Virus record (IMG/VR): IMGVR_UViG_3300032240_001531
Location: 1 to 64,000 of that record
Reading direction: 5' to 3' (one strand)
Length of the DNA: 64,000 nucleotides
From: a virus
Taxonomy: Duplodnaviria; Caudoviricetes
In this document: positions 1 to 63,519 of the stretch, piece by piece
How the letters are laid out: each line of letters starts with the position of its first letter
Position numbering within the stretch: position 1 is the stretch's first letter
The notes under the pieces: generated by a model
Database searches by the model: none
Told to the model about the DNA's origin: nothing
The model's input: the letters and a program-made list of their open reading frames with translations, nothing else
Position numbers and translations under genes: made by a program

Positions 1-81
1 CCCAACAAAAAGCCAATAGCCATTCGCCGATCAGGTGAATGGTGGCTATTGGCTTTTTGTTGGGTCGGCGCGACACGCCCG
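1..81. repeat. Conserved palindromic cassette-boundary element, copy 1 (cut by window edge)
   Basis: 22-bp inverted repeat CCCAACAAAAAGCCAATAGCCA/TGGCTATTGGCTTTTTGTTGGG followed by TCGGCGCGACACGCCCG; same frame as copies at 585 and 1380. Confidence 0.9.
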
Positions 82-110
82 AAAAACATGTTATCAAAAT
101 GTTATAAAAC

Positions 111-150
111 TCCCCGAGGGGAGCGGAGGGCTAGGGCTAGCCCTCCGCTA
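111..150 (-). terminator. GC-rich double hairpin after ORF 156-458
   Basis: AGCGGAGGGCTAG/CTAGCCCTCCGCT stem plus TCCCC-GA-GGGGA; near-identical copy at about 711-751. Confidence 0.6.
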
Positions 151-155
151 TTTTG

Positions 156-458
156 TTAGGCGTTTAGTTTTATCTTAGAGCGCTCTTTGATTACACAAAG
201 CAAAGTTTCTGCCATGTTGTCAAACATACCAAAGACACTTCCAGTGTCCTCGCCAGTTTCAGAATCAACGCTGAAAGTTTCTACCCTAAAAACTAATCTG
301 CTGTATTCATTGATTCTACCCTCTAAGATTATGGAGTTTTCTGTGTCTAGTTCATAAACCCAACTTAGAGTTTCTGGTTGGCGAACCATTGACAAACCTA
401 CCTCTAAAATCTGGTTATCAATGCTCTCGGTAAGTTCTGCTAGTGTTTTATTACTCAT
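156..458 (-). CDS. Early hypothetical protein (cassette 1)
   Basis: 100-aa ORF with AGAGAG-type RBS, 5' stem-loop and promoter upstream. Confidence 0.8.
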   Translation of the reverse strand: MSNKTLAELTESIDNQILEVGLSMVRQPETLSWVYELDTENSIILEGRINEYSRLVFRVETFSVDSETGEDTGSVFGMFDNMAETLLCVIKERSKIKLNA

Positions 459-504
459 TTTTGATACTCTCTCTGTTTTGGAGGAACACTCGGGGAACCT
501 CTCA

Positions 505-580
505 CTTACTAACTTACCGCTAAATAGGGCTATTAGATACCAATTTTGATAACGATATCGTTATATAACGATTTGATAAC
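505..580 (-). promoter_or_regulatory. Early promoter of cassette 1 with GTTAT-n6-GTTAT boxes
   Basis: Minus strand TTGGTATCTAATAGCCCTATTTAGCGG-TAAGTT; similar to 1300-1345 and 2243-2290. Confidence 0.6.
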
Positions 581-584
581 GGCC

Positions 585-684
585 CGCCAACCCAACAAGT
601 CTAAGAAATCGAAGATTTCTAGACTTGTCAAAAAAGCCAGTTAGCTATGCTACTGGCTTTTTTGTTGGGTCGGCGACACGCCCG
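585..684. repeat. Conserved branched palindromic element, copy 2
   Basis: CGCCAACCCAAC-[hairpin]-T-[hairpin]-GTTGGGTCGGCG-ACACGCCCG. Confidence 0.9.
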
Positions 685-756
685 AGATTTTCGTTATCAA
701 ATTGTTACAATCCCCGAGGGGAGCGGGAGGGCTAGAGCAACCCTCCCGCTATTCTG

Positions 757-1005
757 CTAAACTGTTGTGATAAGTGAAACTGGAGTGTCTTGTTCAGTGC
801 AATACTTTAGTTTGCCCCAAGGGGTTTCGATAAAGTAGTTGTAGCCCTCGCATTTAGATTCATGTTCGCGGTTGCAGTTTGAATCTAATTTGATTCTTAC
901 AGGTTCTACAAACTCATCGCCAGCCCAGATTGCCATGATGTAGCCGTTCCAGAGTTCGCCGTCGGATCCTGTGGTGATGTGTTGCTCAGTAATTCTAATT
1001 TCCAT
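757..1005 (-). CDS. Early hypothetical protein (cassette 2, gene 2)
   Basis: 82-aa ORF; AGGAA RBS lies inside the repeated 60-bp intergenic unit. Confidence 0.75.
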   Translation of the reverse strand: MEIRITEQHITTGSDGELWNGYIMAIWAGDEFVEPVRIKLDSNCNREHESKCEGYNYFIETPWGKLKYCTEQDTPVSLITTV

Positions 1006-1062
1006 TTCATTTCCTAACTGTTTGAGTGGTGGCAGTTTTACAGGTCTGCCAACTGTTTTGGA
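1002..1062 (-). repeat. About 60-bp intercistronic repeat, copy A (pseudoknot plus RBS)
   Basis: Nearly identical to 1864-1923: CATTTCATTTCCTAACTGTTT...GTGGCAGTTTTACAGGTCTGCCAACTGTTT. Confidence 0.9.
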
Positions 1063-1067
1063 ACTGA

Positions 1068-1253
1068 TTAGTTGTTTTTGCGAACTAACTCCATTAGTCC
1101 ATTCTTTATGTTGCCAATTGCTGAATTGATTGCCAAAGTGTCTTGCTGACTAAGTGTTGGTTTTGCCAGCTCTTGCTGTAGCAATTCCAAAACCTCGCCG
1201 TAAGCAAGTTGCTTACCAAGTCTGGTAACCAATTTAATCATCTCTGCATCCAT
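1068..1253 (-). CDS. Early hypothetical protein (cassette 2, gene 1)
   Basis: 61-aa helical ORF with AGAGAG RBS and leader stem-loop. Confidence 0.75.
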   Translation of the reverse strand: MDAEMIKLVTRLGKQLAYGEVLELLQQELAKPTLSQQDTLAINSAIGNIKNGLMELVRKNN

Positions 1254-1299
1254 GTTCTAGTTCTCTCTATTTGTGAGCAAGTTCTCTTGACTTGCTTCA

Positions 1300-1372
1300 C
1301 TACTAACATTACGGCAAAATAGGGTTATTACACTAAAAGTTACCATTTCGTTACATAACGAAATCGTTATAA
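1300..1372 (-). promoter_or_regulatory. Early promoter of cassette 2 with GTTAC/GTTAT boxes
   Basis: Minus strand TAATAACCCTATTTTGCCG-TAATGT; GTTAC-CATTTC-GTTAC at 1339-1354. Confidence 0.6.
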
Positions 1373-1379
1373 AACACGC

Positions 1380-1481
1380 CGCCAACCCAACAACTATTGG
1401 AAACTTCGTTTCCTAATAGTTGTCAAAGCCGCATATGCTAAAGCATATATGCGGCTTTGTTGGGTCGGCGCGACACGCCCG
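1380..1481. repeat. Conserved branched palindromic element, copy 3
   Basis: Same flanks as copy 2; arm sequences differ but remain complementary. Confidence 0.9.
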
Positions 1482-1544
1482 GGCTGCATTGTTACACAAC
1501 TGTTATAAAGAGTCAGTTTAGCCACTTGACTCAGGTGGTGTTGC

Positions 1545-1778
1545 TTATAGTTCGAAGTCGCGAGGGAAGGTGATTACTATCTCGCCCTTGTGGCTGTAAT
1601 TGATATCGAGTTTGATGTTTGTCTCGATAGCTTGCACGAGCAAGCGAGTAATCAACTTGTCGTCTGCCCAAGCGTTGCCGTTGCATACATCACAAGTGCC
1701 TGATGCAGTGCCACAGCCACGCTGGTTTATCAGGTTCGGCTTGTCGCTGAACAGGTGGATACTAGTTATTCTTGCCAT
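1545..1778 (-). CDS. Early hypothetical protein, possible Zn-binding (C...CxxC)
   Basis: 77-aa ORF containing GCGTASGTCDVC. Confidence 0.7.
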   Translation of the reverse strand: MARITSIHLFSDKPNLINQRGCGTASGTCDVCNGNAWADDKLITRLLVQAIETNIKLDINYSHKGEIVITFPRDFEL

Positions 1779-1779
1779 T

Positions 1780-1866
1780 TTATTTTCCTAACTTAGATAC
1801 TAGATAACCAATTGCAAAGGCAATGATCATTTCCAATAGGTCTTGCCCGTTTATTATGTGTGTCAT
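1780..1866 (-). CDS. Small hydrophobic peptide (28 aa)
   Basis: MTHIINGQDLLEMIIAFAIGYLVSKLGK; ATG follows the RBS of repeat copy B. Confidence 0.6.
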   Translation of the reverse strand: MTHIINGQDLLEMIIAFAIGYLVSKLGK

Positions 1867-1923
1867 TTCATTTCCTAACTGTTTAGTGTGTGGCAGTTTT
1901 ACAGGTCTGCCAACTGTTTGGAG
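1864..1923 (-). repeat. About 60-bp intercistronic repeat, copy B
   Basis: Duplicate of 1002-1062. Confidence 0.9.
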
Positions 1924-1927
1924 CGTT

Positions 1928-2197
1928 TTATGCCAATGGTAATTCTGTGATGTCTGGCATAATCCATTCTGGAGCCGAACCGTTGACTTCATCAACTTGC
2001 CAGAGTCCATCAACAGACTGCCAAGAATGTGACTGTGCAATTCTGAAACTGTCAATGCCCTGAACTGTGATAGTCAAGATAGACTGCTGACCACTGACAT
2101 CATTGCCAACTGTGTACCCTGATACTTTACCAATGACTGAACTATCTAGTGCTTCATTAGCAAGATAGATAGTGTCGCCGATAGATAACTTGAACAT
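1928..2197 (-). CDS. Early hypothetical protein (cassette 3, gene 1)
   Basis: 89-aa ORF with AGAGAG RBS. Confidence 0.75.
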   Translation of the reverse strand: MFKLSIGDTIYLANEALDSSVIGKVSGYTVGNDVSGQQSILTITVQGIDSFRIAQSHSWQSVDGLWQVDEVNGSAPEWIMPDITELPLA

Positions 2198-2242
2198 AAT
2201 TACTACTCTCTATTAGTGGCAAACTCTGGGGGCTTGCTCTAC

Positions 2243-2302
2243 TATCAACATTACACCTGCCAAGCCTATTAGGATACCAATTTAGGTTACAAAATGGTAA
2301 CG
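2243..2302 (-). promoter_or_regulatory. Early promoter of cassette 3
   Basis: Minus strand TTGGTATCCTAATAGGCTTGGCAGGTG-TAATGT; GTTAC-n6-GTAAC at 2286-2301. Confidence 0.6.
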
Positions 2303-2310
2303 ATTAGTTC

Positions 2311-2368
2311 CGATCATCTGTTCGGACAAGATGCTTTGGGGGGGTACGGTTAGGCGAACACTTGTTCG
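2311..2368. promoter_or_regulatory. Two putative LexA (SOS) boxes
   Basis: CGAAC-ACTT-GTTCG (2355-2368, perfect CGAAC-N4-GTTCG) and CGATC-ATCT-GTTCG (2311-2324, one mismatch). Confidence 0.6.
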
Positions 2369-2682
2369 GGAAAGCCGCCAGGGCTTCCCTACGAGTGGGG
2401 TCTAATAAAGTTAGGCAGTAGCCTAAAGGGCGGGGGGTAGCGGGCGCAGCTGTTTGGGTGTTTGGGTGTTTGTAATGAAATCGTTATGAAATCGTTACTT
2501 AAGCTGTGAGGCAGGTGGCCTGCGCAGCTAGTTAAATATTTGATTATCTTTTTGTTTTAATAGGAATACTTATTTGATTGGTATAGCTGTGCTAGCTGCG
2601 CCGCCTTACCTGCAAATTTCACAATATTAGATGTTGTTGTTTTTCGTGTTATAATCTGTTCCCTATGGTTTATACTGGAGCA

Positions 2683-3006
2683 ATGAGTAGCAGAAATAAA
2701 AAATCTAGAGATATGCGTAAGGCTGGCCGAACAGCTCACTTTGAAGCTGGAGTCAGCGGTGGCCGCGAGTATTGGGACAACAGAGACAACGGTCCTCATA
2801 AAGACACTTATGAATGGTCTACAAGGACTACCTTCCCTTTCGGTCCTAAAGAGCAGAAAGCAACAGGTCTAGACTGGCACATGAAGACCGGTAAGTATCC
2901 TACACATCACCCATCTATGGAGTATGACGAGCGTTGTCCTAAGTGCGAGAGCTTAGACCGTACCTTTGACCATCCTAATGGACGTAAGTGGTCGGACGTA
3001 GAGTAA
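2683..3006 (+). CDS. Hypothetical protein with CxxC, probably leaderless
   Basis: TATACT lies 6 nt before ATG 2683; CPKC motif. Confidence 0.7.
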   Translation: MSSRNKKSRDMRKAGRTAHFEAGVSGGREYWDNRDNGPHKDTYEWSTRTTFPFGPKEQKATGLDWHMKTGKYPTHHPSMEYDERCPKCESLDRTFDHPNGRKWSDVE

Positions 3007-3032
3007 TAAAGCAATGAGTAGAAAGAGAAGCA

Positions 3033-3227
3033 ATGCCGTTATATGAAACAAGCTGTAACCTATGCAGCCAAAAGACTTTGCACAACGCTGTAGATGAAGC
3101 GGGAGCTGAAAAGAAGCATCGCGCGCTTGACTCGCACAAGGAAGCTCAATCACAGTTTGATGCGATAATAAAAAAGTACGAAGACAAGCGTGCTGCTTTC
3201 GAGCATGGTAAAGACCATAACGACTAA
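3033..3227 (+). CDS. Small CxxC protein
   Basis: MPLYETSCNLC; TAATG coupling to the next gene. Confidence 0.7.
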   Translation: MPLYETSCNLCSQKTLHNAVDEAGAEKKHRALDSHKEAQSQFDAIIKKYEDKRAAFEHGKDHND

Positions 3228-3595
3228 TGAAGCCTAAAAAAGGGCAGTTTAAGTTCAATGGTCCGCTACAGATTACTCACTCAAAACTTACAGAACCTTC
3301 CGAGTTTGGTGATACAAAGATAACTGCCTCTAAATTTGGTAAAGAAGTTGGGCATATGGGGCTACATCGAGAAGATAGCCAACTTACTTTTGCTGATGGT
3401 GCGACCTCACTGAGTGGCGTAACTGGCAGTAGGAAGTTTCGTGAAGTAGCAATGGTTAGAGTAAATAAGGGCCAAAGACGTAAAGGTGTTGCAACAGCTA
3501 TGTGGAAGTACGCTAAAGACAATGACCTAAAGCCAGAGCATAGCGCCGCACAAACAGATGCAGGCAAAGCCTGGGCTAAGAAAGTAGGCGACTAA
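3227..3595 (+). CDS. GNAT-family acetyltransferase-like protein
   Basis: Acetyl-CoA motif A V-x-V-x4-RRKGVATAM followed by HS..QTDAGKAW. Confidence 0.75.
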   Translation: MKPKKGQFKFNGPLQITHSKLTEPSEFGDTKITASKFGKEVGHMGLHREDSQLTFADGATSLSGVTGSRKFREVAMVRVNKGQRRKGVATAMWKYAKDNDLKPEHSAAQTDAGKAWAKKVGD

Positions 3596-3822
3596 TGAAG
3601 CCCCGCGGACTATTAGAAGAGTTTGCAAAAGGTCGTTCTCCAGAACTACACCAAGTACTAGGTGTATTCACCCAAAATAATGCCGTTTTAGGGCTAGATG
3701 TGATGGGGGCAATTAGATTGAATGATGGTATCTTTAGTGGACCAAAAGGCGCCTATCAACGGTATACTACTTCTAAGGCAGCATCAGATGTTGCACAAAC
3801 CCCTTACGGAAGTTCAATATGA
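3595..3822 (+). CDS. Hypothetical protein
   Basis: Translationally coupled ORF in operon. Confidence 0.65.
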   Translation: MKPRGLLEEFAKGRSPELHQVLGVFTQNNAVLGLDVMGAIRLNDGIFSGPKGAYQRYTTSKAASDVAQTPYGSSI

Positions 3823-4124
3823 ATCCAAAAGAAGAGCAATTTAAAAAAGTCCACAAAGAGACCATGGGACAACTTGATAGCACTATTAAGTTAACTAGAG
3901 GCCTTGCCGATATTTTTAGTAACACCAGTATGTCTTCCAGTGAGAAGGATGCCGCTATAGATGCCCTAAACAAGTCTGTAACGGCCAGCCCGTCGACTAC
4001 AAGCACTGAACATGAATATAATGAGGCAATGTCTCAAGACCCTCGCTACAACGCTCCTGAAGACTTAGAGTCTATGGGTAATGCAATGTTTAAAGCAGAA
4101 CAGGAAAAAAATAATGGAGCCTAA
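3819..4124 (+). CDS. Hypothetical protein (N-terminal PKxxQF)
   Basis: ATGA overlap; 101 aa. Confidence 0.7.
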   Translation: MNPKEEQFKKVHKETMGQLDSTIKLTRGLADIFSNTSMSSSEKDAAIDALNKSVTASPSTTSTEHEYNEAMSQDPRYNAPEDLESMGNAMFKAEQEKNNGA

Positions 4125-4266
4125 AGATAAGCAGCTAGAACCTAAGCGTAATTCGTTGCCAAGCAAGTGTGATACTTGTGGTGGCGGTTTTCACAATGGT
4201 TTTTATGGTAGCCCTACTACTTGTGATGATTGCATTGTAGAAGCTGAAGAAAAGGGTAAGAAGTAA
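4114..4266 (+). CDS. Small zinc-finger protein
   Basis: CDTC...CDDC; GGA RBS before ATG 4114. Confidence 0.65.
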   Translation: MEPKDKQLEPKRNSLPSKCDTCGGGFHNGFYGSPTTCDDCIVEAEEKGKK

Positions 4267-4592
4267 TGCCTTTTAAAGGAAGACAATTTAAAGGCTTAAC
4301 GCCTGAACAAAAGAAATCTGCTCGTATTGCTCAGGGTGGAGAATATCGTGTAACTCAAGGGCATTTAGCTTCTGAGTCTTTAAGCCCATCTACTACAAGC
4401 GGTAGAAAGAAAGTTGTTGACACTGCGATGTCAAACAATAAGAGAGAACTTGAAAACTTTCGCAATTCTGGTAAAAGTGTTAAAGACCTTGACCGAATGT
4501 ATAAGACTACTGGTAAAACAGTAGAAGCTAGTGGTGGGGCCATTGCTCGTATTAGAGCCGGCGAACCTGCTAGATATGATAAGGGTAGATAA
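4266..4592 (+). CDS. Basic hypothetical protein
   Basis: TAATG-coupled; N-terminus MPFKGRQF. Confidence 0.7.
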   Translation: MPFKGRQFKGLTPEQKKSARIAQGGEYRVTQGHLASESLSPSTTSGRKKVVDTAMSNNKRELENFRNSGKSVKDLDRMYKTTGKTVEASGGAIARIRAGEPARYDKGR

Positions 4593-4933
4593 TGGCTGAA
4601 AAGAAAAAAGCAACCGCAAGTAAAGCTAAAACTAAAGCCGGTACTACTAAAGACGGTAAAAAGGTTTATGGACCGTTTAAAGGCTCTGCTAAGAACGGTG
4701 GGCGTCCTATGATGTCTGTTGTGAATAAAGATGGTTCTCGTACATCTATTGATGCTGCTAAGTACAAGTACGAGAAGAAAACAGGCAAGAAGTTGCCTAA
4801 AGGTACCGACGTTGACCACAAGGACAACAACCATTCTAATGACAGCATGTCTAACCTTCGCCCTATGAAGCACGGTAAGAACACTGCTAAAGAGAACAAG
4901 CGTCGTGCAGGTAAAAAAGAAAACGACAAATAA
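4592..4933 (+). CDS. HNH-motif protein
   Basis: DVDHKDNNHSNDSMSNLRPM..GKN matches the HNH pattern. Confidence 0.75.
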   Translation: MAEKKKATASKAKTKAGTTKDGKKVYGPFKGSAKNGGRPMMSVVNKDGSRTSIDAAKYKYEKKTGKKLPKGTDVDHKDNNHSNDSMSNLRPMKHGKNTAKENKRRAGKKENDK

Positions 4934-5034
4934 TTCGGTTTAGATAAGAAATCTGAAACAACTCACGCCATACTTATTACTATGGCGTTCCGATCAAGCG
5001 TCTTTAAATCTATCTCTAGAGAAAGTATAAATCA

Positions 5035-7413
5035 ATGGCAAACAACCTAGGTGACCTTCAGGACAGCGGTACGCTAGTCCAAAACACCAATGCAATTGTG
5101 AACGGTGCCACTACAAACAGCACTAGCGTCATCATTGCCGCAGCTAACCCTTACATATTCGTTGGTCAGACCGTAACTGGTTCTGGTATCCAAAATGCTA
5201 ACGGTATCACAGGAGCTACTAAAGTCACAGCAATTAGCGCTGATGGACTAACCCTAACCCTTAGCAACCCTGCAACTCTTGTAGACAAGGTGACTCTTGT
5301 CTTCCTATCTGTTTATGCACCTACTGCTACCACTACTGTAAACGGTGCTATCTCAAGCGCAACTAACTCAGTTACTATTGTTGCTAACACCCTAATTGCT
5401 GTTGGTCAGCTTGTTTCTGGTGTCGGTATCAACGCAGCTACTGCTACAACAGCTAACACTGTAAACAACAACGCTACCTCTACTACCTTGGTTCTTAACG
5501 CTGCTACTTCTGCGGCAGTTGCAGACAAGGCTGTCCTAGTGTTCTGGAACTTGGCTAACGCTAACATCAGTACTGACTTTGTATGGGGTAACTATGCAAT
5601 TCAGCCAAACGATGACCGCGCAACCACTCCTGCTGGTAACTTTGTTGCTTCTGGTGTTACAACTGCAAAGATTACAGATGCATCTAGCACTGGTAAGATT
5701 ACTACTTTTATAACTGACGTAGCCCACGGTATTTCGGCAGGTCAGTACGTAAACACTGGTGTCTATGCTATCGGTGGTACAGTTGCTGTTCCAACAGCGG
5801 GTACAACAGTATCTAACCAAACAGGTACCTCTTCTACTGTAACTCTTGCTGCTGCTACTCCAACCGCTGACACTACTCAGGGAACTGTAACTCTAGCCAC
5901 TTCTGCTGCCCACAATATTAGCGTTGGTGAACTAGTAACTATCTCAGGTGGTTTGACTACAGCCGCTGTTTACAACGGTACTTTTACAGCTTTGGCTGGT
6001 ACAACTGGTAGCACACTAGTAGTTGCTAACGCTACTGCTGCTGTTGCTTCACCTGCTGCAACAACTACAGCTTGTACTCTTGCCGTTAACCACTTCGATG
6101 TTAACAGTGCCCTTGTACTATCTGTACCTTCAACAACTACGTTTACAATTGCTCAAGCGCTTCCAAATATTAACGCAGTTGCTCCTACAGGTAAGACTGC
6201 TTCTCTTGAGGTTGTTTATGACTCAAGCTGGTCAGCTACTACTAAAGCACAGAGCTCACGTCTAGCTGTTTCTAAACTTACTGACAGCAACAGCAAGGAT
6301 AGGTTCGTAATTAGCAACACTGTAAACGGAAACTCTCTAGAGACTCCAATTGACAGTGCTCTTCTTGTAGATTCAGGTTTCTACGGTTTCCCTAACTTCA
6401 ACACTGGTAAGTATTCAGCATCTGCTGCTACTGTTGGTGGGAGCACAGGTAACTCATATATCGTAGTAACTTGCCCAAACAACTTTGCTGAGACCCTAAC
6501 TCTAGGTACAAGCACAGTAAACGTAACTGGTTTCAACAACACTGCTCTAACCACAGCCCTAACTGGTGCAATTGTCGTTGCGGCTACTTCTGACTACTTC
6601 GTGGTTGCAGGTACTAACGCACTTCTAGGTACAACCGTAACCGGTACTGCACTTGTGCAGGTTGTTGGTTGGGGTATTGCAAACTACAACGTAACTGCCG
6701 TTACTGTTGATGGTACTACTAACACCACTTACATCTACACTGCACAGAACAACTTGCAGAAGGGTGACAAGGTTACAGTTACCGGTTTGGTTAGCAACGC
6801 CACATTGAACCCTAACATCAGCAACGTAACTGTGGCTTCTGCAACTGCTACTAGCTTTACAGTAACTGGTCAGACTGCTTCAACTGTTAACTACTCATTC
6901 ACTGGTCAGGTTGGTAAGGCAGAATACACAAACGCTTTGGCTAACGTGGATGGTGCTTTTGCTACAGGTACTTTCGGTTATCTAGTTCCTAGCGTAATTG
7001 GTAAGTACGACGCTTTGGCAAACGACGCCCTAAAGGACCGTGGTTTTGTACAGAGCGCTGGTTCAACTACATCATCAAGCTCTAACGCAGTAACTATCAG
7101 CTCTGTTGCTCGTACTGCTGGTAGCACCCTGGCTGTTCTAACCCGCAGCGCAGGAACTGACTTTACCAACATTGTTGTCGGTGACGTTCTGACTGTATCT
7201 AGCTCATCTCTTGCAGGTCTTGTGAACGCACTTGACTACCAGGTTGTAGCTAAGATTGATGCAAACAACGTTGTAGTTAACTCAGGCTCTAGCGCAGTAC
7301 TTTCATCAGGTACCCTAACCCTAACCCCACGTGTTGGTACAGTCCACGCTCAGCAGTATGCTGCTGGTACTGCACGTACAACTACTGCAATTACTACTGG
7401 CCTCTGGGCTTAA
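5035..7413 (+). CDS. Large Thr/Ala/Val-rich virion protein with repeated beta modules and a split C-terminal PASTA-like domain
   Basis: Repeats VGQxVxGxGI and HxIxVGxxVTISG..YNGTF; VPSVIG..A.DALKDRGF ... GTVHAQ is PASTA-like. Confidence 0.65.
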   Translation: MANNLGDLQDSGTLVQNTNAIVNGATTNSTSVIIAAANPYIFVGQTVTGSGIQNANGITGATKVTAISADGLTLTLSNPATLVDKVTLVFLSVYAPTATTTVNGAISSATNSVTIVANTLIAVGQLVSGVGINAATATTANTVNNNATSTTLVLNAATSAAVADKAVLVFWNLANANISTDFVWGNYAIQPNDDRATTPAGNFVASGVTTAKITDASSTGKITTFITDVAHGISAGQYVNTGVYAIGGTVAVPTAGTTVSNQTGTSSTVTLAAATPTADTTQGTVTLATSAAHNISVGELVTISGGLTTAAVYNGTFTALAGTTGSTLVVANATAAVASPAATTTACTLAVNHFDVNSALVLSVPSTTTFTIAQALPNINAVAPTGKTASLEVVYDSSWSATTKAQSSRLAVSKLTDSNSKDRFVISNTVNGNSLETPIDSALLVDSGFYGFPNFNTGKYSASAATVGGSTGNSYIVVTCPNNFAETLTLGTSTVNVTGFNNTALTTALTGAIVVAATSDYFVVAGTNALLGTTVTGTALVQVVGWGIANYNVTAVTVDGTTNTTYIYTAQNNLQKGDKVTVTGLVSNATLNPNISNVTVASATATSFTVTGQTASTVNYSFTGQVGKAEYTNALANVDGAFATGTFGYLVPSVIGKYDALANDALKDRGFVQSAGSTTSSSSNAVTISSVARTAGSTLAVLTRSAGTDFTNIVVGDVLTVSSSSLAGLVNALDYQVVAKIDANNVVVNSGSSAVLSSGTLTLTPRVGTVHAQQYAAGTARTTTAITTGLWA

Positions 7414-7424
7414 TAGTTAAATAG

Positions 7425-7456
7425 AAAAACCCCAGTCGTTTGGCTGGGGTTTTTTT
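7425..7456 (+). terminator. Intrinsic terminator
   Basis: AAAAACCCCAGTC-GTTT-GGCTGGGGTTTTTTT. Confidence 0.85.
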
Positions 7457-7498
7457 ATTTAAACTGCTAAACTTAAAAAAAAGGAATAGGATTTAATT

Positions 7499-8458
7499 AT
7501 GGCTGATAACACCGAAAAATCTGCTGCCGAAGCTATGGCAGGCTCACAAAGTAAAGGTACCAGTTACTTAAAAGATTTGCTTAAATTTAGTACTTTCTCT
7601 GGTAATAACCGTAATAACTCTGGCTCAAACTCAGGTAGTTCATCCTCTAGCTCTAGCTCTACAGTAGGTGGGCAAGGTACAACCGGTAATGGTTGGACTG
7701 CTGAGGACTATAAGAACCACAATGAATATAAGCAAAATGAGCACGCAAGAAGCCAAGACGCTGAAAATAACGCATATGTTCGTGGAGAATCCGTTAAAGA
7801 TAACGACCTTATTCGCACAAACGCCGCGGAAAAAGCAAGGCATAAAAGAAGCCAAGAAGCGGAGAATAACTCGTATATTCGCGGAGAGTCTGTTAAAGAT
7901 AACGACCTTGTTCGTACAAACGCCGCAAAAAATGCAAAATATGCTCGTAAAGAGTTGCAAAGAAACAACGATGTTACTCGTAATAACACAATACTTGAAA
8001 ATGCAAAAAAGAACGGCCAAGTATCTAGCATAGATGTTGATCACAAAAGTGGCCGCCAACAGATTAGATTTAACGATTCTCCGGTTAGAGAAACTAACCC
8101 AGGAAATGGCGCAGGTAACCAAGGCGGAAGCACACAGCAAAGTCAACCTGGCGGTAGAAAAGCTCCTGCTGGTAAAGGTAAGCCTAAAGTAGACAACCCT
8201 TTTGAAACTCGTTTTCTTGATGAAGGCGCTAAAAACAGCCAAGATTACTTAGGTGATACTCGAAAGAAGAGTGAGTGGGCGACCATCGATAAGAAAAACC
8301 GTAGAGATGTTGCTAATAGTTACGTTACTAAAGGCGATAAGCTAACTCCAGCGCAAAAGAGACAAAATACTGCTGCTAGGTCATACGCAACCCCTTTTAA
8401 GCCAGGCACCACTGCCGGACAAGCTAAGGCTGGCAGTACTCGTGGAAAAAAGGCTTAA
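7499..8458 (+). CDS. Hydrophilic low-complexity protein with a 33-aa tandem repeat
   Basis: Ser-rich N-terminus; 99-bp duplication at 7741-7938. Confidence 0.75.
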   Translation: MADNTEKSAAEAMAGSQSKGTSYLKDLLKFSTFSGNNRNNSGSNSGSSSSSSSSTVGGQGTTGNGWTAEDYKNHNEYKQNEHARSQDAENNAYVRGESVKDNDLIRTNAAEKARHKRSQEAENNSYIRGESVKDNDLVRTNAAKNAKYARKELQRNNDVTRNNTILENAKKNGQVSSIDVDHKSGRQQIRFNDSPVRETNPGNGAGNQGGSTQQSQPGGRKAPAGKGKPKVDNPFETRFLDEGAKNSQDYLGDTRKKSEWATIDKKNRRDVANSYVTKGDKLTPAQKRQNTAARSYATPFKPGTTAGQAKAGSTRGKKA

Positions 8459-53564: not shown

Positions 53565-53960
53565 ATGGCATACATCGGAGATAAAAAACGCGTCTATCAA
53601 AACACTTGGCTTAATTTACGCAGGCTTGCTTGGATTGAATCACAAGGCGGCAAATGCGTTAAATGCGGTTCTGAAGAGCGTTTAGAGATAGACCATATTA
53701 ATAGACATGAAAAGTCTATGAAAATATCAGCTTTGTGGTCCAGGTCAGCCAGTGTTCGTGAAGTTGAATTAAGCAAATGTCAAGTACTTTGCCATACTTG
53801 CCACAAAGAAAAGACTATTGCCGAATCTACTACGGCTAAATGCGGTCAAATAGCTATGTATAATAAAGGCTGTAGATGTGACGAGTGTAGAGAAGCCAAC
53901 CGATTGCGTGTAAGTAAAGGTAGGGAATTAAAAAAACAACGTCTTAATACGCCCCTATAG
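53565..53960 (+). CDS. HNH endonuclease, leaderless
   Basis: CVKCG...LEIDHI...CQVLCHTCH; TGGTACACT lies 6 nt before ATG. Confidence 0.85.
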   Translation: MAYIGDKKRVYQNTWLNLRRLAWIESQGGKCVKCGSEERLEIDHINRHEKSMKISALWSRSASVREVELSKCQVLCHTCHKEKTIAESTTAKCGQIAMYNKGCRCDECREANRLRVSKGRELKKQRLNTPL

Positions 53961-54022
53961 CTCAACGGCAGAGCGCCGCTCTTGTAAAGCGGAGGTTGTG
54001 ATATCGTAATTCACTGGGGGCT
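53951..54022 (+). tRNA. tRNA-Thr(TGT) with atypical T arm
   Basis: Acceptor GCCCCTA/TGGGGGC, D arm GCTC/GAGC, anticodon arm CCGCT-CTTGTAA-AGCGG. Confidence 0.8.
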
Positions 54023-54148: not shown

Positions 54149-54700
54149 ATGAAGATACGTGATCAATTCCCAGACCCGTGGGATAAGCACAAAAATCCAT
54201 ATGACCCATATGGTAAAGCAACTCCAAATCCGCATGACCCTGCGGATATTTATACTAAATGGCAGAAACCGCCTGCCCCAAAGGTTATTACCATCAATGA
54301 CCTATTTCCAAGCCTAGACCGTTGGTCTATTGGTTGGTCCCCGCTGTTAGAGCAGCTTAAAGAGTTGTCAACTGCCAAGGCGAGTTATCCTCCCTATGAC
54401 ATTATTGACCACAAAAACGACACCACAGTCATCAATGTAGCTGTTGCTGGTTTCGATAAGAAAGAACTATCAATCACAGTAGAAGAACAGGCGTTGAAAA
54501 TTGAAGGTAAAAAGAAAGACAAAGAACAAGAAGGCGAACTCGTTCACAACGGTATCGCTGGACGCGATTTTAAGCTCACTTTTGCCCTTGCTGAATTTTA
54601 CGAAGTAGAGTCAGCCAAGGTAGAAAACGGGCTTTTATCAGTCAAGTTGTTTAAGAATATCCCTGACGAAAAGAAGCCAAAAGTCATAGATATCAAATAA
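54149..54700 (+). CDS. Small heat shock protein (Hsp20/IbpA-like)
   Basis: YPPYDI, AVAGF, GIAGRDF, A.VENGLLSV. Confidence 0.9.
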   Translation: MKIRDQFPDPWDKHKNPYDPYGKATPNPHDPADIYTKWQKPPAPKVITINDLFPSLDRWSIGWSPLLEQLKELSTAKASYPPYDIIDHKNDTTVINVAVAGFDKKELSITVEEQALKIEGKKKDKEQEGELVHNGIAGRDFKLTFALAEFYEVESAKVENGLLSVKLFKNIPDEKKPKVIDIK

Positions 54701-54713
54701 ACTGTAGTGGTTA

Positions 54714-54784
54714 TGGTTCTAAGTGTTACGGTAGCACGGCGGTCTCCAACACCGCAGGCGTAGGTTCGACTCCTACAGAACCAG
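54714..54784 (+). tRNA. tRNA-Trp(CCA)
   Basis: TGGTTCT/AGAACCA acceptor; GCGGT-CTCCAAC-ACCGC; GTAGG-TTCGACT-CCTAC. Confidence 0.9.
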
Positions 54785-55471: not shown

Positions 55472-55707
55472 TGGGACGCATGTCAGATTTAGACGCAGAA
55501 CTACACGAATTACCTGACGAAATTAAAGACTTTATGCACGGGTTTAACAGAGGCCGCGCCGAAGGACTTGCTATAGGTCAAGAAGAAGGTGCTTTTGCAG
55601 AACGTGAACGCATCGTTAAGCTGCTAGAAAATCAACACAACTTTGACCAAATCTTTTTAGATGCTGTGAGTCACGTTATTACTCTTATCAATGGAGAAGA
55701 CAATTAG
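55471..55707 (+). CDS. Hypothetical protein (ERERIVKLL)
   Basis: TAATG-coupled. Confidence 0.65.
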   Translation: MGRMSDLDAELHELPDEIKDFMHGFNRGRAEGLAIGQEEGAFAERERIVKLLENQHNFDQIFLDAVSHVITLINGEDN

Positions 55708-56146
55708 CCAAATAAATTCTGGTCTATACTCTAGCGCAACTGATGACTGGGGTACGCCTCAAGCATTGTTTGACGAGTTAAACGATGAATTTAATTTTAC
55801 CCTGGATGCTTGTGCTAGCGCACACAACTTTAAAGTAGATGTTTATTTTACTAAAGAGGATAATGCGCTAGTGCAGGACTGGGTGGGTACCGTATGGATG
55901 AACCCGCCTTACGGTAGAACTATCGGTAAATGGATGGCTAAGGCATACGCTGCTTCACAAACTGGGGCAACTGTAGTATGCTTAGTGCCTGCCCGTACAG
56001 ATACTATCTGGTGGCATGACTATGCAATTAAAGGCGAAGTAAGATTTATAAAAGGCAGGCTAAAGTTTGAACAACCAGGGTTTGCCAAAAATAGCTCAGC
56101 ACCTTTTCCAAGTGCTATAGTAATTTTTAAAGGAGTTAACTCATGA
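55691..56146 (+). CDS. Phage DNA N6-adenine methyltransferase
   Basis: DDWGTPQ, LDAC, WMNPPYG, LVPARTDT, GRLKF. Confidence 0.9.
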   Translation: MEKTISQINSGLYSSATDDWGTPQALFDELNDEFNFTLDACASAHNFKVDVYFTKEDNALVQDWVGTVWMNPPYGRTIGKWMAKAYAASQTGATVVCLVPARTDTIWWHDYAIKGEVRFIKGRLKFEQPGFAKNSSAPFPSAIVIFKGVNS

Positions 56147-59948: not shown

Positions 59949-60360
59949 TTGGTGGGCAGATAAATTAGGCACCCCAAGACAACCACAGCAACCACGATTA
60001 CCTGAACAACAAGTTCCTGTAGTCCAGCCTGGTATAACACCGCAGTATCCTGGGTATACTCCTAATCAAGGTTATCCTCCGGTTACCCAACAGCCTACTT
60101 ACAACCCAGATTTAGCTGGGCATGTTCTTCCAGCAAGTGCATTGACCCCAAGTCGTTGTCCAAACTGTTCTAGTGGTAATTATGGAAAAATGACCCCAGA
60201 GACAGCGCCTCGTTGCTATGATTGCGGTTATCCAATACAGCAATCTGGTTCAGGTATGCCGGGAGTCAGAGTACCATCTAATGGTAATACACAAGCTGCT
60301 AAGCAAATCAGTACAGCAAATAATTTTAACCCAGGCACAATTGTAGATAGGATCGGTTAA
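59941..60360 (+). CDS. Pro/Gln-rich zinc-ribbon protein
   Basis: CPNCSSGNY...RCYDCGYP. Confidence 0.75.
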   Translation: MSNWWADKLGTPRQPQQPRLPEQQVPVVQPGITPQYPGYTPNQGYPPVTQQPTYNPDLAGHVLPASALTPSRCPNCSSGNYGKMTPETAPRCYDCGYPIQQSGSGMPGVRVPSNGNTQAAKQISTANNFNPGTIVDRIG

Positions 60361-61379
60361 TGTCTAAAGTAGTAGATGCTGTAGTAGCAAAATTAAATAA
60401 AAAACTTGGTGAAAATACTATTGTCAAGGCGTCTGAGATTGTACCTATGACTAGGTTTACATCGGGATCATTGTCATTGGATATGATTTTGGGCGGTGGT
60501 TGGCCAACTAACCAATGGCATGAGATTATTGGTGAAGCAAGTAATGGTAAGACCGCACTAGCCCTTAAAACCATTGCAGCTAATCAGAAAATTAACCCTG
60601 ATTTTACTACTATTTGGATTGCTGCTGAGCAGTGGGTTCCAGAATATGCAGAGATGTGCGGAGTAGATTCCTCACGAGTGTTTGTGTTTAGTAGCAACGT
60701 TATGGAAATTGCTTTAACAGCTGTCTTAGAATTTGTAGAAACTAAAGAAGTTGATTGTGTAGTTATTGACTCACTTCCGGCCCTTGTACCTTCAGCAGAA
60801 GACGAAAAGGAAATGGAAGAATTTACAGTTGGCCGTGGCGCAATGCTTATGGGTAAGTTCTTTCGTAAGATGGAACGAGCTGGCAAACGCAGTATGTTAG
60901 GCGAAGAGCGACCATTCATTGGTTTAATTATTAACCAGTTTCGTATGAAAATTGGCGTAATGTATGGAGACCCACGCACTACTCCAGGTGGCGAAGGTAA
61001 GAATTACTTTTTCTTTACCCGCGTTGATGTAAAGCGCGATGAATGGATTGAGATTGGCACAGGTCAGGAAAAGCGTAAGGTAGGCCAAACTATCAAATTC
61101 CAGACCAGAAAGAACAAGTCGTCACCTCCGGGACAGACTGCGTTTGTAGATTTTTACTTTGATGACGGCTCTGGCATTGACAAGGGTGAATATGATTTTG
61201 CCAAAGAAATCGTATCGCTAGCCATCATTAATAAAATTGTTGTGAGAGCCGGAGCATATTACCGCTATTCTGACCGTCAATGGCAGGGTGCAGATGCGTT
61301 GCTTAGTTCAATTAGAGAAGAAGTAGACTTGCAGGAACAATTAACTAAAGACGTGATGGGTACTTTAAAGCTTGGCTAA
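60360..61379 (+). CDS. recA: RecA-like recombinase
   Basis: SGSLSLD..LGGG, GEASNGKT, VIDS, INQFRMKIGVMYGDP.TTPGG. Confidence 0.95.
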   Translation: MSKVVDAVVAKLNKKLGENTIVKASEIVPMTRFTSGSLSLDMILGGGWPTNQWHEIIGEASNGKTALALKTIAANQKINPDFTTIWIAAEQWVPEYAEMCGVDSSRVFVFSSNVMEIALTAVLEFVETKEVDCVVIDSLPALVPSAEDEKEMEEFTVGRGAMLMGKFFRKMERAGKRSMLGEERPFIGLIINQFRMKIGVMYGDPRTTPGGEGKNYFFFTRVDVKRDEWIEIGTGQEKRKVGQTIKFQTRKNKSSPPGQTAFVDFYFDDGSGIDKGEYDFAKEIVSLAIINKIVVRAGAYYRYSDRQWQGADALLSSIREEVDLQEQLTKDVMGTLKLG

Positions 61380-61716
61380 ATCTGAGGGTCAGAAACAATC
61401 CCTAAAACATGAAAAACGCCTTGCCAAAGCCATCGGAGGTCAACGTAATGTTGCCTCCGGTGCTTTTTGGTTTCGCAAAGGCGATGTACGGTCACAAGAC
61501 CTTCTAATTGAACATAAGTGGACTGGTAAAAAGTCGTTTACCCTGAAGTCTGATGTATTAGAAAAGATAACCACAGAGGCCCTCCTAGACAGCCGTACGC
61601 CTGTTTTGGGCATAAGCCTAAATGATGTCAACTATGTGGTTATGGACGAAAATGACTTTTTGACAATGAGAGAATTTCTGCTACAATGTATAGAGGAGCA
61701 CACGGAAGAGAAGTAG
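61372..61716 (+). CDS. PD-(D/E)xK nuclease (resolvase-like)
   Basis: E.RLA...GG..N.ASGA....KGDV.....IEHK. Confidence 0.75.
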   Translation: MAKSEGQKQSLKHEKRLAKAIGGQRNVASGAFWFRKGDVRSQDLLIEHKWTGKKSFTLKSDVLEKITTEALLDSRTPVLGISLNDVNYVVMDENDFLTMREFLLQCIEEHTEEK

Positions 61717-61735
61717 CTCAACTATTGGAGTTTAT

Positions 61736-62110
61736 TTGTCTACCCCGTTTACTAGCTTTCTTTCAGAACCAGACCCTTGGCAATATGAGTCCAAGTGCGG
61801 CACCAGAAGATATGATGATGAAACCAAAGATTATGTATCTGTTTATAATCCAGACCTTTGGTTTCCGCCAAGAGATAAAGAATTATACAAACCAATAGCA
61901 GACAAAGCTAAATCAATTTGTTTTGGCCGTGATGGCAAAGGTGAATGCCCTGTTCGTTTACAATGTTTAATGTTTGCGGATAAGAATGATGAAGTGCACG
62001 GTATCTGGGGCGGCATGAGCCATCGTGAACGAAACGCTTTAAAACGTAAAGCTAAAAAGCAAGGAACTACTTTAGAAGAACTTGCTAAAAAAGCTAGTAG
62101 ACAACCATAG
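61736..62110 (+). CDS. whiB: WhiB-family transcription factor
   Basis: C...WFP...AKSIC...CPVRLQC...GIWGGMS.RER. Confidence 0.9.
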   Translation: MSTPFTSFLSEPDPWQYESKCGTRRYDDETKDYVSVYNPDLWFPPRDKELYKPIADKAKSICFGRDGKGECPVRLQCLMFADKNDEVHGIWGGMSHRERNALKRKAKKQGTTLEELAKKASRQP

Positions 62111-62147
62111 AAAAGTGTGCTATGTTCTTAAGTGGAGGACATAAAAC

Positions 62148-63023
62148 ATGCCAGAGAAAAAACTAAAAAAGATACCAGCAGGTGCATTGAAAAGCTTTGT
62201 AGATGCCGGTAAATCAACCACAAGAGTGATTAGCAAAGTAGAACGCTTTGTACTATCACAACCTATAGATAATTCTAGATCGTTTAATGGTTTACACCCA
62301 TCCGCTATGGTTAGCCCATATTGGTGCCACCGAGCGTCTTACTTTCATTTAAAAGGTAATCATCCTACACCCGAAGCTCGCCAATTTAAACGCGAACTAA
62401 TTTTTGCACAAGGTCACGGTATTCATGCTACTTGGCAAAATTGGTTTCGTGACATGGGTAAGTTGTACGGTGTATGGGAGTGTAAGAGCTGCTTTATTAA
62501 AATTTGGGAAACTAGCCCAGAAGGTTGTGACTCCTGTAGTACGCAAGGAACAATGCGTTATAAAGAAGTTCCCGTAGAATATGACAAGTTGATGATTACT
62601 GGCCATTCAGACGGTTGGCTAAAAGGATTTGGCGATGACCTAATGCTTGAAATTAAGTCAGTAGGTGCCGGTACATTTATGTGGTACGACCGGTCAAACT
62701 GGTTTGCATCAAATCAAGATTTTGCTGAAGCATGGAAAAATCTTAAGTCACCATTTGAGGCGCACATAGCCCAGGTTCAGTTATATATGAAAGTGTTAGA
62801 GTTATCTGGTCGGACAGATGTACCACAAGAAGCTGTGTTATTGTACGAAGCAAAGCCTACACAGGAAATTAAAGAGTTTATTGTTCGCAAAGATGATTGG
62901 GCGATTCAGCCAATTATTGATGGCGCACAAATTGTGGTAGACTCGTTATCTAAAAACAGCGCCCCAGACTGTAATGTTGGCGGAGCGTTAAAGTGCAAAC
63001 AATGCGGAGGGTTCAATGAGTAA
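62148..63023 (+). CDS. Cas4-like exonuclease
   Basis: HPS....C.R, GHSDG, EIKS, QVQLYM, terminal C..CKQC. Confidence 0.8.
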   Translation: MPEKKLKKIPAGALKSFVDAGKSTTRVISKVERFVLSQPIDNSRSFNGLHPSAMVSPYWCHRASYFHLKGNHPTPEARQFKRELIFAQGHGIHATWQNWFRDMGKLYGVWECKSCFIKIWETSPEGCDSCSTQGTMRYKEVPVEYDKLMITGHSDGWLKGFGDDLMLEIKSVGAGTFMWYDRSNWFASNQDFAEAWKNLKSPFEAHIAQVQLYMKVLELSGRTDVPQEAVLLYEAKPTQEIKEFIVRKDDWAIQPIIDGAQIVVDSLSKNSAPDCNVGGALKCKQCGGFNE

Positions 63024-63519
63024 GACAACATTAATCACAAATGACACCAGCAAGTACATCTTAGATATGCTTGATGAACAAGGATTGACTGTAGACCGTG
63101 AAACGTCTATGCCACGCCCAGAGCTTCCAGCTGATATCACAGAGTTAGATGATGAAGACCTAATGCGTTTATACACACATTTATCGGCTTACAGTGAATT
63201 TCTAAGTACTCAATTAGCCTGTGCCATTATTGATGAAAAAGATGCAGAACGTAACAAAGATTATGCTGAGTCAGAGGCAATGTTACGTCATCAGACAAAC
63301 AACGCTAAGACCACAGTAACTATTATTAAAGCCTTAGTTGATGGCGACCCTACACTCGGTGAAGTGCGCCAGGAGGCCTTGGTCAAGTACTCGTATCGCA
63401 AAATGCTAGAGACCATGGTTAATAACTACGAACGTAGCACCGCGGTCTGTAGCCGTGAACTGACCCGTAGAACATCAAGCGATAACTTTAAGACCAGAAG
63501 TCGTAAGTTTACCGCATAA
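63016..63519 (+). CDS. Hypothetical helical protein
   Basis: C-terminal SRELTRR; lies in recombination cluster. Confidence 0.7.
   Translation: MSKTTLITNDTSKYILDMLDEQGLTVDRETSMPRPELPADITELDDEDLMRLYTHLSAYSEFLSTQLACAIIDEKDAERNKDYAESEAMLRHQTNNAKTTVTIIKALVDGDPTLGEVRQEALVKYSYRKMLETMVNNYERSTAVCSRELTRRTSSDNFKTRSRKFTA

Follow-up and report, generated by a model that had tools for sequence, protein, structure and literature searches.

Variable gene content between conserved palindromic boundaries in an array of small transcription units from a group of uncultured phages

The first 2,300 nt of a Caudoviricetes record (IMG/VR, IMGVR_UViG_3300032240_001531) contain a row of small leftward genes separated by repeated elements, and raise the question of whether genes are captured or shuffled between these repeats. 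The window analyzed here is the first 64 kb (positions 1 to 64,000) of the whole linear record, termed G000, which has 79,408 nt and is rated 87% complete. Comparison with related phages (contigs and loci are designated below by G and L numbers) and with assembled strain variants from metagenome runs X1 to X4 reveals that different genes and different units occur between the same boundary frames, and that each frame includes an inverted repeat with a conserved stem base.

Shared layout of the units

Analysis of region 1-2300 confirmed the three leftward transcription units with one boundary layout described in an earlier, sequence-only reading; all their genes lie on the minus strand. On the gene strand the order is phased boxes, TAATAG or TAATAA separated by 12-13 nt from TAAKKT, a leader hairpin, AGAGAG and the ATG, followed by one to three small open reading frames (ORFs), a 3' hairpin, two more boxes and finally CGGGCGTGTCG(CG)CCGACCCAAC. 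Every unit thus has its own boxes, TAATAG/TAAKKT block and leader. The motif GTTGGGTCGGCG(CG)ACACGCCCG is found at 59-81, 664-684 and 1459-1481 and nowhere else in the 79,408-nt record (three forward matches, none in reverse, none for the control); when the 23-mer of the motif was searched with up to three mismatches, two matches were obtained versus none in 100 shuffles. The boundary element is therefore repeated as had been described, but it turned out to be merely the right arm of an inverted repeat.

Unit A opens with a control block (2240-2301; GTTAC 2286-2290, GTAAC 2297-2301, the TAATAG hexamer 2266-2271 and, as its TAAKKT hexamer, TAATGT 2248-2253), which can be aligned with its counterparts in units B and C and in locus L004, and proceeds through a leader with a weak stem-loop (2198-2239; AGAGAG 2206-2211 before the ATG) to gene A1 (1928-2197; 89 aa, no family match). 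Next come the second copy of an intercistronic hairpin, hpX (1886-1913; GGCAG...CTGCC, ~20 nt ahead of the following ATG), a 28-aa hydrophobic ORF, A2 (1782-1868; MTHIINGQDLLEMIIAFAIGYLVSKLGK), and the 77-aa A3 (1545-1778). The unit closes with another hairpin of the intercistronic type, hpY (1510-1545), a box pair with an 11-mer (1471-1509; GTTAC 1491-1495, GTTAT 1502-1506, CGACACGCCCG 1471-1481), and palindromic element E1 (1380-1470). Unit B is composed of a control block and leader (1254-1379; boxes 1339-1375, TAATAA ~1325-1330, TAATGT 1306-1311, a stem-loop, AGAGAG 1263-1268), gene B1 (1068-1253; 61 aa, without relatives among the arrays compared), the first copy of hpX (1025-1052), gene B2 (757-1005; 82 aa), a 3' block (674-756; GC hairpin ~712-750, box pair 693-708, 11-mer 674-684), and element E2 (585-675), where units B and C meet. 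Unit C has the corresponding control block and leader (459-584; boxes 549-581, TAATAG 530-535, TAAGTT 511-516, AGAGAG 467-472), the single gene C1 (156-458; 100 aa), a 3' block (71-155; GC hairpin ~110-150, box pair 90-105, 11-mer 71-81), and element E3 (1-70), which is truncated because the contig starts inside it. At the 3' side of their genes, units B and C carry GC hairpins (folding z-scores of -3.0 and -4.6, respectively), while the structure of unit A differs, being the intercistronic-type hairpin (z -0.6).

The boxes (GTTAY/RTAAC) are phased 11 nt apart and occur in both orientations. Eight pairs of the form GTTAY-N6-GTTAY exist in the record, six of them within the first 2.5 kb; shuffled sequences contained 1.0 on average and 4 at most. 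Within units, the repeated intercistronic element hpX has the core GGCAGTTTTACAGGTCTGCC at 1031-1050 and 1892-1911. The hpX hairpin (GTGGCAGTTTTACAGGTCTGCCAACTG; 1025-1052 and 1886-1913 in the window) also occurs in L004 (330-349) and in L111 (2806-2825), where ~27 nt are identical and lie just upstream of a start codon, although L111 is richer in G+C and, judged by eye, otherwise unlike the window. The internal genes of G001 are preceded by variants of hpX with other stems and the same AAAC loop end. No other coding piece of unit A is as well conserved among the relatives as the A2 ORF, which is kept in G001, G002 and G003 (88.9% identity to G003 over 1788-1868), and always stands directly after hpX. 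hpY (36 nt, 100% identical to G003 and 94.4% to G001) stands before a gene in G001 and before none in the window.

The array in related phages

A search with the 792-aa protein encoded at 5035-7413 retrieved four related contigs. The one designated G001 (88,562 nt, 97% complete, 83% identity in the 792-aa protein) has a layout like that of the window with the arm variant CCAACTCAAC / GTTGAGTTGG, and its ends overlap by 14 nt inside an element (position 1 and 88549-88562), so that the map closes into a circle. Its array runs leftward from ~3300 through position 1 to ~82,150. It contains nine complete palindromes, which delimit eight units, and a further, open-ended unit lies at either end. Since the array of G001 extends past position 1, the window shows only the promoter-proximal part of a longer array, and the rest lies in the missing 13% of G000. 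One contig of run X1, the likely source run of the record, extends 123 nt past position 1, and a second contig of this run contains a further box-plus-arm copy. The G000 and G001 contigs both begin at CCCAAC inside a palindrome (in G000, in the left arm of copy 3); together with the overlapping ends of G001 this indicates that assemblies break in this repeat.

Pattern scans identified 40 stretches in IMG/VR and 46 in metagenome contigs, and none in one genome each of 185,579 prokaryote species, from which we conclude that the elements belong to this phage group; they were not found in prophages or hosts. The pooled set comprises 60 loci with 199 palindromes (142 unique), and the units have a median length of 754 nt (range 399-2774). 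High-G+C single matches in the IMG/VR scan lacked boxes and were probably due to chance; the 14-mer TTGTTGGGTCGGCG was too unspecific as a search key (among the loci compared at that point the paired motif was present in L004 alone, and L005 was a chance match); and the loose pattern CAACNNAACAA...TTGTTNNGTTG yielded mostly chance matches outside the family.

The boxes following the palindromes are of two types. According to a simple rule, which left 76 of the 199 elements unclassified, RTAAC-type boxes (TTATAACGAAATGATAACG) follow the element in 66 cases and GTTYAY-type boxes, also with 11-nt phasing, in 57. Among the relatives the palindrome words are kept while the box type changes; the switch from RTAAC to GTTYAY is seen when L146, L157, L144, L148 and L165 are contrasted with G000, G001, G003, L140 and L152. 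In L127 both types occur side by side, and in L137 boxes are located inside the palindrome stem. As for a factor that would bind the boxes, one Cro/C1-like helix-turn-helix protein (G000 76966-77211) was examined and does not follow the box type: its homologs in G001 and L157 share the putative recognition stretch despite the different boxes. A reading of the boxes as IHF sites fits some GTTAY boxes but not the GTTYAY type.

Anatomy of the palindromes

In the window, the left arm CGCCAACCCAACAA (585-598, 1380-1393) pairs with the right arm TTGTTGGGTCGGCG (662-675, 1457-1470); the arms, of 12-14 bp, are 63 nt apart and close two inner hairpins, one of which is terminator-like. In E1 the 14-nt closing stem (13/14 complementary) surrounds the terminator-like hairpin and the second hairpin (-58.9 kcal/mol, z -6.4). 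E2 is of comparable stability (-61.0 kcal/mol, z -8.5), and on the gene strand a run of six T comes after its inner hairpin (629-664). E3 is a single hairpin with perfect arms of 22 nt (-49.8 kcal/mol, z -8.4). In window-type units the terminator-like hairpin is thus inside the palindrome, while the distal units of G001 have a canonical terminator (a GC stem and up to nine T) directly before it.

The palindrome of the cassette has a conserved stem base, CCAAC-YC-AACAA / TTGTT-GR-GTTGG. Of 47 unique elements, 35 are single hairpins with contiguous perfect stems of 23-40 bp (median 26), and the remaining 12 are two-hairpin forms with a perfect closing stem of 12-13 bp; the stem consists of a CCAAC-NN-AACAA word and two tandem 8-mers that vary between elements. 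The central dinucleotides of the arms form the pairs CC/GG, TC/GA, CT/AG and GT/AC and are complementary in 82 of the 85 listed elements, which come from partly overlapping loci. This covariation and the coexistence of different dinucleotide variants within one phage lead us to conclude that complementarity is maintained within each element. Mismatches at the third arm position are G.T in 8 elements and A.C in 6 (gene strand), i.e. without a strand bias that would separate RNA structure from DNA structure.

A number of distal elements have the outer 10-nt words swapped (GTTGAGTTGG ... CCAACTCAAC) with the orientation of the inner hairpin unchanged, namely G001 82155-82232, 83925-84002, 84792-84870 and 86034-86111, as well as elements in L152, L183 and L158, the last of which carries GT/AC swapped elements alongside TC/GA normal ones. 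Both W-hairpin-W' and W'-hairpin-W topologies thus exist, which a bare hairpin function would hardly explain and which suggests recognition of the word itself.

Variation of gene content

Among the relatives, the content and the order of the units vary while the boundaries persist, a positive outcome of the check proposed by the sequence-only reading. The 139 complete units of the 60 loci represent 65 gene compositions; more than one composition was found for 26 of the 50 gene families (one family is present in 12), and 8 of 46 units are followed by two or more different units, all these counts being based on crude longest-ORF picks and on a pattern that merges two units wherever it misses an element. 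The B2 gene illustrates the change of partners: it stands after a 61-aa gene in the window, after a 116-aa gene in G001, and first in a three-gene unit in L157. C1 has homologs in L140, L144 and L148. In G003, two units that are neighbors in G001 are separated by an extra one, and the first unit of G003 combines the first gene of G001 unit 2 with the hpX-plus-28-aa module of G001 unit 1.

Further changes were observed in assembled variants of this same phage from other metagenome runs. Variants from runs X3 and X4 lack unit B, and the junction joins 581 to 1412 in the left arm/first hairpin. In a variant from run X2 the 77-aa A3 is replaced within its own limits by 140 other letters (joint 1545 to 1778), and in a variant from run X3 the sequence joins at hpX (1884 to 1040; copy 2 is the site of this swap). 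The 113-aa first rightward gene (2665-3006) is lost in runs X3 and X4, with a joint 2680 to 3012 at 10 shared letters. Where unit B is missing or the 77-aa gene is replaced, the junctions lie in or beside conserved intergenic elements. The 113-aa gene is also absent from L004, and its G001 homolog is found further downstream.

With respect to function, searches of Pfam and PHROGs returned no match for the five ORFs of region 1-2300 that were searched, and the ESM Atlas provided nothing usable for C1 and B2 (all scores < 0.9). Units of the relatives carry a DUF932 protein and an Api92-like domain. Both families are common in the leading regions of plasmids and in accessory regions of phages, and as cargo they fit accessory or takeover genes, a hint short of proof. 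The assignment of the cargo to host takeover or anti-defence made by the sequence-only reading is not supported.

Origin and role of the boundaries

We consider it probable that composite terminator-operator-promoter cassettes insulate the accessory units and at the same time serve as homology patches for recombination, in a manner similar to PeSL (promoter-early stem-loop) cassettes. In this view, the accessory genes are organized as autonomous transcription units in a long leftward array, of which region 1-2300 is the promoter-proximal end. Each cassette, read along the gene strand, would start with a terminator hairpin or hairpins, situated within or immediately ahead of a long near-perfect palindrome whose base is conserved; the direct operator boxes in 11-nt phasing would bind a phage-specific regulator; and a promoter-like block without a -35 hexamer (TAATAG, 12-13 nt, TAnnnT), a 5' stem-loop and an AGAGAG leader would precede one to three small genes (elsewhere up to five). 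Such cassettes would terminate, insulate and start transcription, and their near-identical repeats of 12-45 nt would act as homology patches through which units or single genes could be swapped, deleted or inserted. General recombination by the phage RecA (60360-61379) and a Cas4-like exonuclease (62148-63023, the sole match among the ORFs beside RecA), or by host enzymes, could carry out the exchange. Of the two proteins invoked by the sequence-only reading, RecA is indeed encoded, and nothing ties it or the Cas4-like exonuclease to the array; RuvC (PF02075) had no match in G000 or G001.

Several observations speak against this explanation. A sigma-70 scan found no consensus promoter at the cassettes, and the promoter and terminator roles, as well as the "early" timing, are assigned from sequence features. 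The 5' leader stem-loops recur in position with changed sequence, but are no more stable than shuffles (z -0.13, -0.57 and +0.80, the last value for unit A). The exactly conserved stretches are short: 12-14 nt for the arms, 26 nt for the longest element repeat, and ~45 nt for hpX. Many of the loci are overlapping or come from near-identical phages, so the counts of compositions and neighbors, already affected by the crude gene calls, do not represent independent events. The conservation of a 12-nt base in two topologies is not accounted for by a plain terminator role. Finally, the ends of homology blocks are not confined to the palindromes. Among 151 ends of alignment blocks (high-scoring segment pairs of at least 250 nt), 55 are in palindrome modules, which make up 21.5% of the sequence, 51 in other intergenic DNA (22.5%), and 45 in coding sequence (56%), i.e. 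the enrichment is 1.7-fold at palindrome modules vs 1.5-fold in the remaining intergenic DNA. This gives the palindromes no unique preference, and exchange is tied to intergenic DNA in general, much of which is itself repeated (hpX, hpY); illegitimate recombination, with subsequent selection for intact genes, would be equally compatible with the data. An initial endpoint test (287 of 779 ends within 30 nt of an element vs 90 expected) was inflated by cassette-to-cassette matches, and was replaced by the one given here.

The comparable enrichment of block ends at both kinds of intergenic sites is also what would be seen if the repeats were purely regulatory and inherited by duplication, while mosaicism arose by rare illegitimate recombination that selection restricted to gene boundaries, the cassettes having no causal part. 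In line with such a scenario, the replacement of the 77-aa ORF ends at the ORF limits and not at a palindrome, and no recombination intermediates were seen in the assembled contigs. However, many junctions fall in conserved repeats (hpX, hpY, arms, box blocks), unit-level insertions and deletions have palindromes on both sides, and one type of inner hairpin is flanked by different genes on both sides in G003 (4414), L144 (1286) and L152 (1625), two of the copies being near-identical and the third differing at more loop positions. We regard purely regulatory repeats as a rather unlikely explanation. Clustering of inner hairpins at 85% likeness was abandoned, as it chained unrelated hairpins via low-complexity 8-mers, and the neighbor counts derived from it were dropped.

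A more elaborate possibility, which we consider improbable, is a dedicated cassette-exchange platform, an integrase-free analog of the integron, in which the palindromes with the 12-nt base are cut or bound by a specific phage protein, e.g. a structure-specific nuclease with extruded cruciforms as its substrate or a nickase that attacks the GATC-bearing loops. The 12-nt word is kept across phages with changed operators, and the two word topologies with a constant orientation of the inner hairpin are suggestive of sequence recognition. GATC is the most avoided 4-nt palindrome in G000 (33 observed vs 177 expected, ratio 0.19), yet it is present in 13 of the 47 unique palindromes (3.5 per kb, compared with 0.69 per kb for the arrays), where the loop often reads CCT(A)GATCGG; the excess is no more than suggestive, as the GATC-bearing palindromes are partly interrelated and not independent. 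The outer words of integron attC sites are RYYYAAC / GTTRRRY, and three of the four arm variants (CC, TC and CT) fit this core-site pattern, but the GT/AC variant (5 elements in L158) breaks it, and the pattern is low in information (about 1 in 1000 by simple arithmetic). PF02075 and the tyrosine recombinase family PF00589 are both unmatched in G000 and in the 97%-complete G001 (for PF00589, no matches at E <= 1, with 14/14 controls detected), and no candidate enzyme was identified. Moreover, the stems are perfect, without the extrahelical bases of attC, and exchange occurs at other intergenic sites as well. No direct or inverted terminal repeats were found among the contigs of the loci, which says little about circles. 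A dedicated capture system, as envisaged by the sequence-only reading, is thus unsupported: it lacks a tyrosine recombinase, a RuvC match, the attC architecture and contigs with terminal repeats. It is likewise doubtful that the conserved base is a recognition site and the GATC loops are the point of action of a phage protein that cuts or nicks extruded hairpins, which would make the boundaries programmed hotspots in a lytic phage.

Least of all do we expect the palindromes to be small mobile elements of the MITE or Correia type that insert between genes and bring a terminator: they do have inverted terminal words, are confined to intergenic DNA, and in one contig of run X4 position 581 is joined to 673 as if E2 were cleanly absent (depth 7.2; the intervening letters are not known), but their interiors are hypervariable and unrelated (142 unique sequences among 199), where a spreading element would keep its interior, they occur once per unit boundary at a fixed place relative to the terminator and the boxes, no transposase was found among the families searched, and there are none outside the arrays in G000 and none in the genomes of the 185,579 species.

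Comparison with known systems

The closest analogs of the proposed insulating and recombining cassettes are the PeSLs of T4-type phages. In the parts of the two papers drawn on here (Arbiol et al. 2010, PMC2839356; Comeau et al. 2014, PMC4122927), PeSLs are small composite terminator/promoter motifs, present in many copies beside ORFans in hyperplastic regions, where they bound insertions, deletions and replacements between close relatives; their exchange is ascribed to homologous recombination between repeats, and mini-circles have been demonstrated. The likeness noticed by the sequence-only reading holds: repeats composed of terminator-like and promoter-like parts are found here as well, and they delimit the insertions, deletions and replacements that distinguish relatives, though the ends are equally enriched at other intergenic sites. 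The copies are likewise concentrated in a plastic region, with three in the window and none elsewhere in the record, as well as nine palindromes in G001, and the five ORFs of region 1-2300 are without family matches. The stem-loops considered in this comparison are very stable (z -6.4 to -8.5), and the promoter-like block is conserved yet departs from the sigma-70 consensus, both features being read from the DNA alone. The differences concern the phage lineage, which is another one (best cultured match of the terminase TerL 54%, BRock; WhiB present), the promoter-like block, which does not match the sigma-70 consensus of host early promoters, the presence of phased operator boxes and of a perfect palindrome of 23-40 bp with a conserved 12-nt base in addition to the terminator/promoter motif, and the arrangement of the units in one contiguous array.

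The boxes resemble the stoperators of Cluster A mycobacteriophages, which, in the portion of Mavrich and Hatfull (2019, PMC6550527) considered, are short asymmetric sites with many intergenic copies and with a consensus that differs between L5 and Bxb1. Here, too, asymmetric boxes are repeated, and their consensus differs between related phages (RTAAC vs GTTYAY). Stoperators number 20-30 genome-wide and are oriented with transcription, whereas 6 of the 8 box pairs of the record are within 1-2500 and both orientations occur; the boxes are arranged in phased pairs or triplets and are confined to the array and the divergent region. A cognate repressor was not identified, the Cro/C1-like protein being the single candidate examined. 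No integrase was found in G000 or G001, hence there is no sign of a temperate life style.

The resemblance to integrons, also proposed by the sequence-only reading, includes a row of small unrelated genes and imperfectly conserved palindromic sites with variable interiors. The comparison fails in that an IntI-type tyrosine recombinase is absent (PF00589; G000 and G001), the stems are perfect, without bulged bases or an unpaired central spacer, and each unit has its own promoter-like block, in contrast to promoterless cassettes read from a platform promoter. For MITE-like elements one would expect a conserved interior, which the palindromes do not have. Lambdoid morons are autonomous promoter-gene-terminator units added to the phage backbone, scattered and without a common boundary cassette; the units described here are also autonomous, but share one boundary cassette. 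The early genes of T7 form one operon, which is cut by RNase III at bubbled hairpins. By analogy, the long intercistronic hairpins of the present, presumably early region could act as RNase III sites, but here a promoter-like block belongs to each unit, and a terminator lies before or within the hairpin.

Genomic context and host

The leftward array is separated from the rightward genes by a divergent control region (2302-2664), which contains a box pair (2483-2498). In contrast to the cassettes, this region provides the rightward genes beyond 2640 with a -10 of the TATAAT type (read by eye). The divergent region also carries G-rich repeats (gtttgggtgtttgggtgtttg, ggcggggggtagcgggcg) and a small hairpin (ttaggcagtagcctaa); it is 72-77% identical to G002 and G003, and matches no Rfam family. 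At the gathering level Rfam detected two tRNAs and nothing else in the window, and for positions 1-3000 the search at E <= 1 gave two chance-level matches alone.

Genes of G000 code for a large terminase of the T4 type, a portal of the SPP1 type, tail sheath and baseplate J proteins and a family A DNA polymerase, as well as a DnaB-like helicase, a primase, an SNF2 helicase and RecA; from this gene set it follows that the phage is a myovirus. Its genome is put at roughly 90 kb. Its best cultured TerL match is weak (Streptomyces phage BRock, 54% identity), and a blastn search of window positions 1-8000 against cultured phages returned no match. A WhiB-family gene is present at 61847-62041, and another one in G001 at 63211-63474; among 14 control genomes, the WhiB profile matched Corynebacterium alone. 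The WhiB gene, the G+C content near 42%, and the freshwater metagenome labels of the runs that carry the phage indicate that the host is probably a freshwater actinobacterium. Host promoters of the actinobacterial type often lack a -35 hexamer, which fits a WhiB-bearing phage with -35-less blocks.

Other features of the window include an Hsp20-family gene (54149-54700) flanked by tRNA genes (53951-54022 and 54714-54784), a 151-aa ORF (55691-56146) with a partial match to one DNA methyltransferase family, and a row of genes at 60360-63023 comprising those for RecA, WhiB and the Cas4-like exonuclease, which is of the PD-(D/E)XK type.

Implications

Recombination of accessory genes at terminator/promoter cassettes has previously been described for T4-type phages, as far as the portions of the two PeSL papers used here are concerned (no wider literature search was made). 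That an unrelated, uncultured lineage with a wide distribution in freshwater metagenomes follows the same logic suggests a general route by which lytic phages trade small accessory genes. The present lineage has a cassette grammar of its own, comprising a terminator, a palindrome, an operator, and a promoter-like block without a -35 hexamer. Primers or search patterns based on its conserved frames would give access to the whole accessory gene pool of the group, the two operator types mark regulatory specificities that are open to testing, and the conserved palindrome base together with the GATC anomaly provides concrete features worth experiment.

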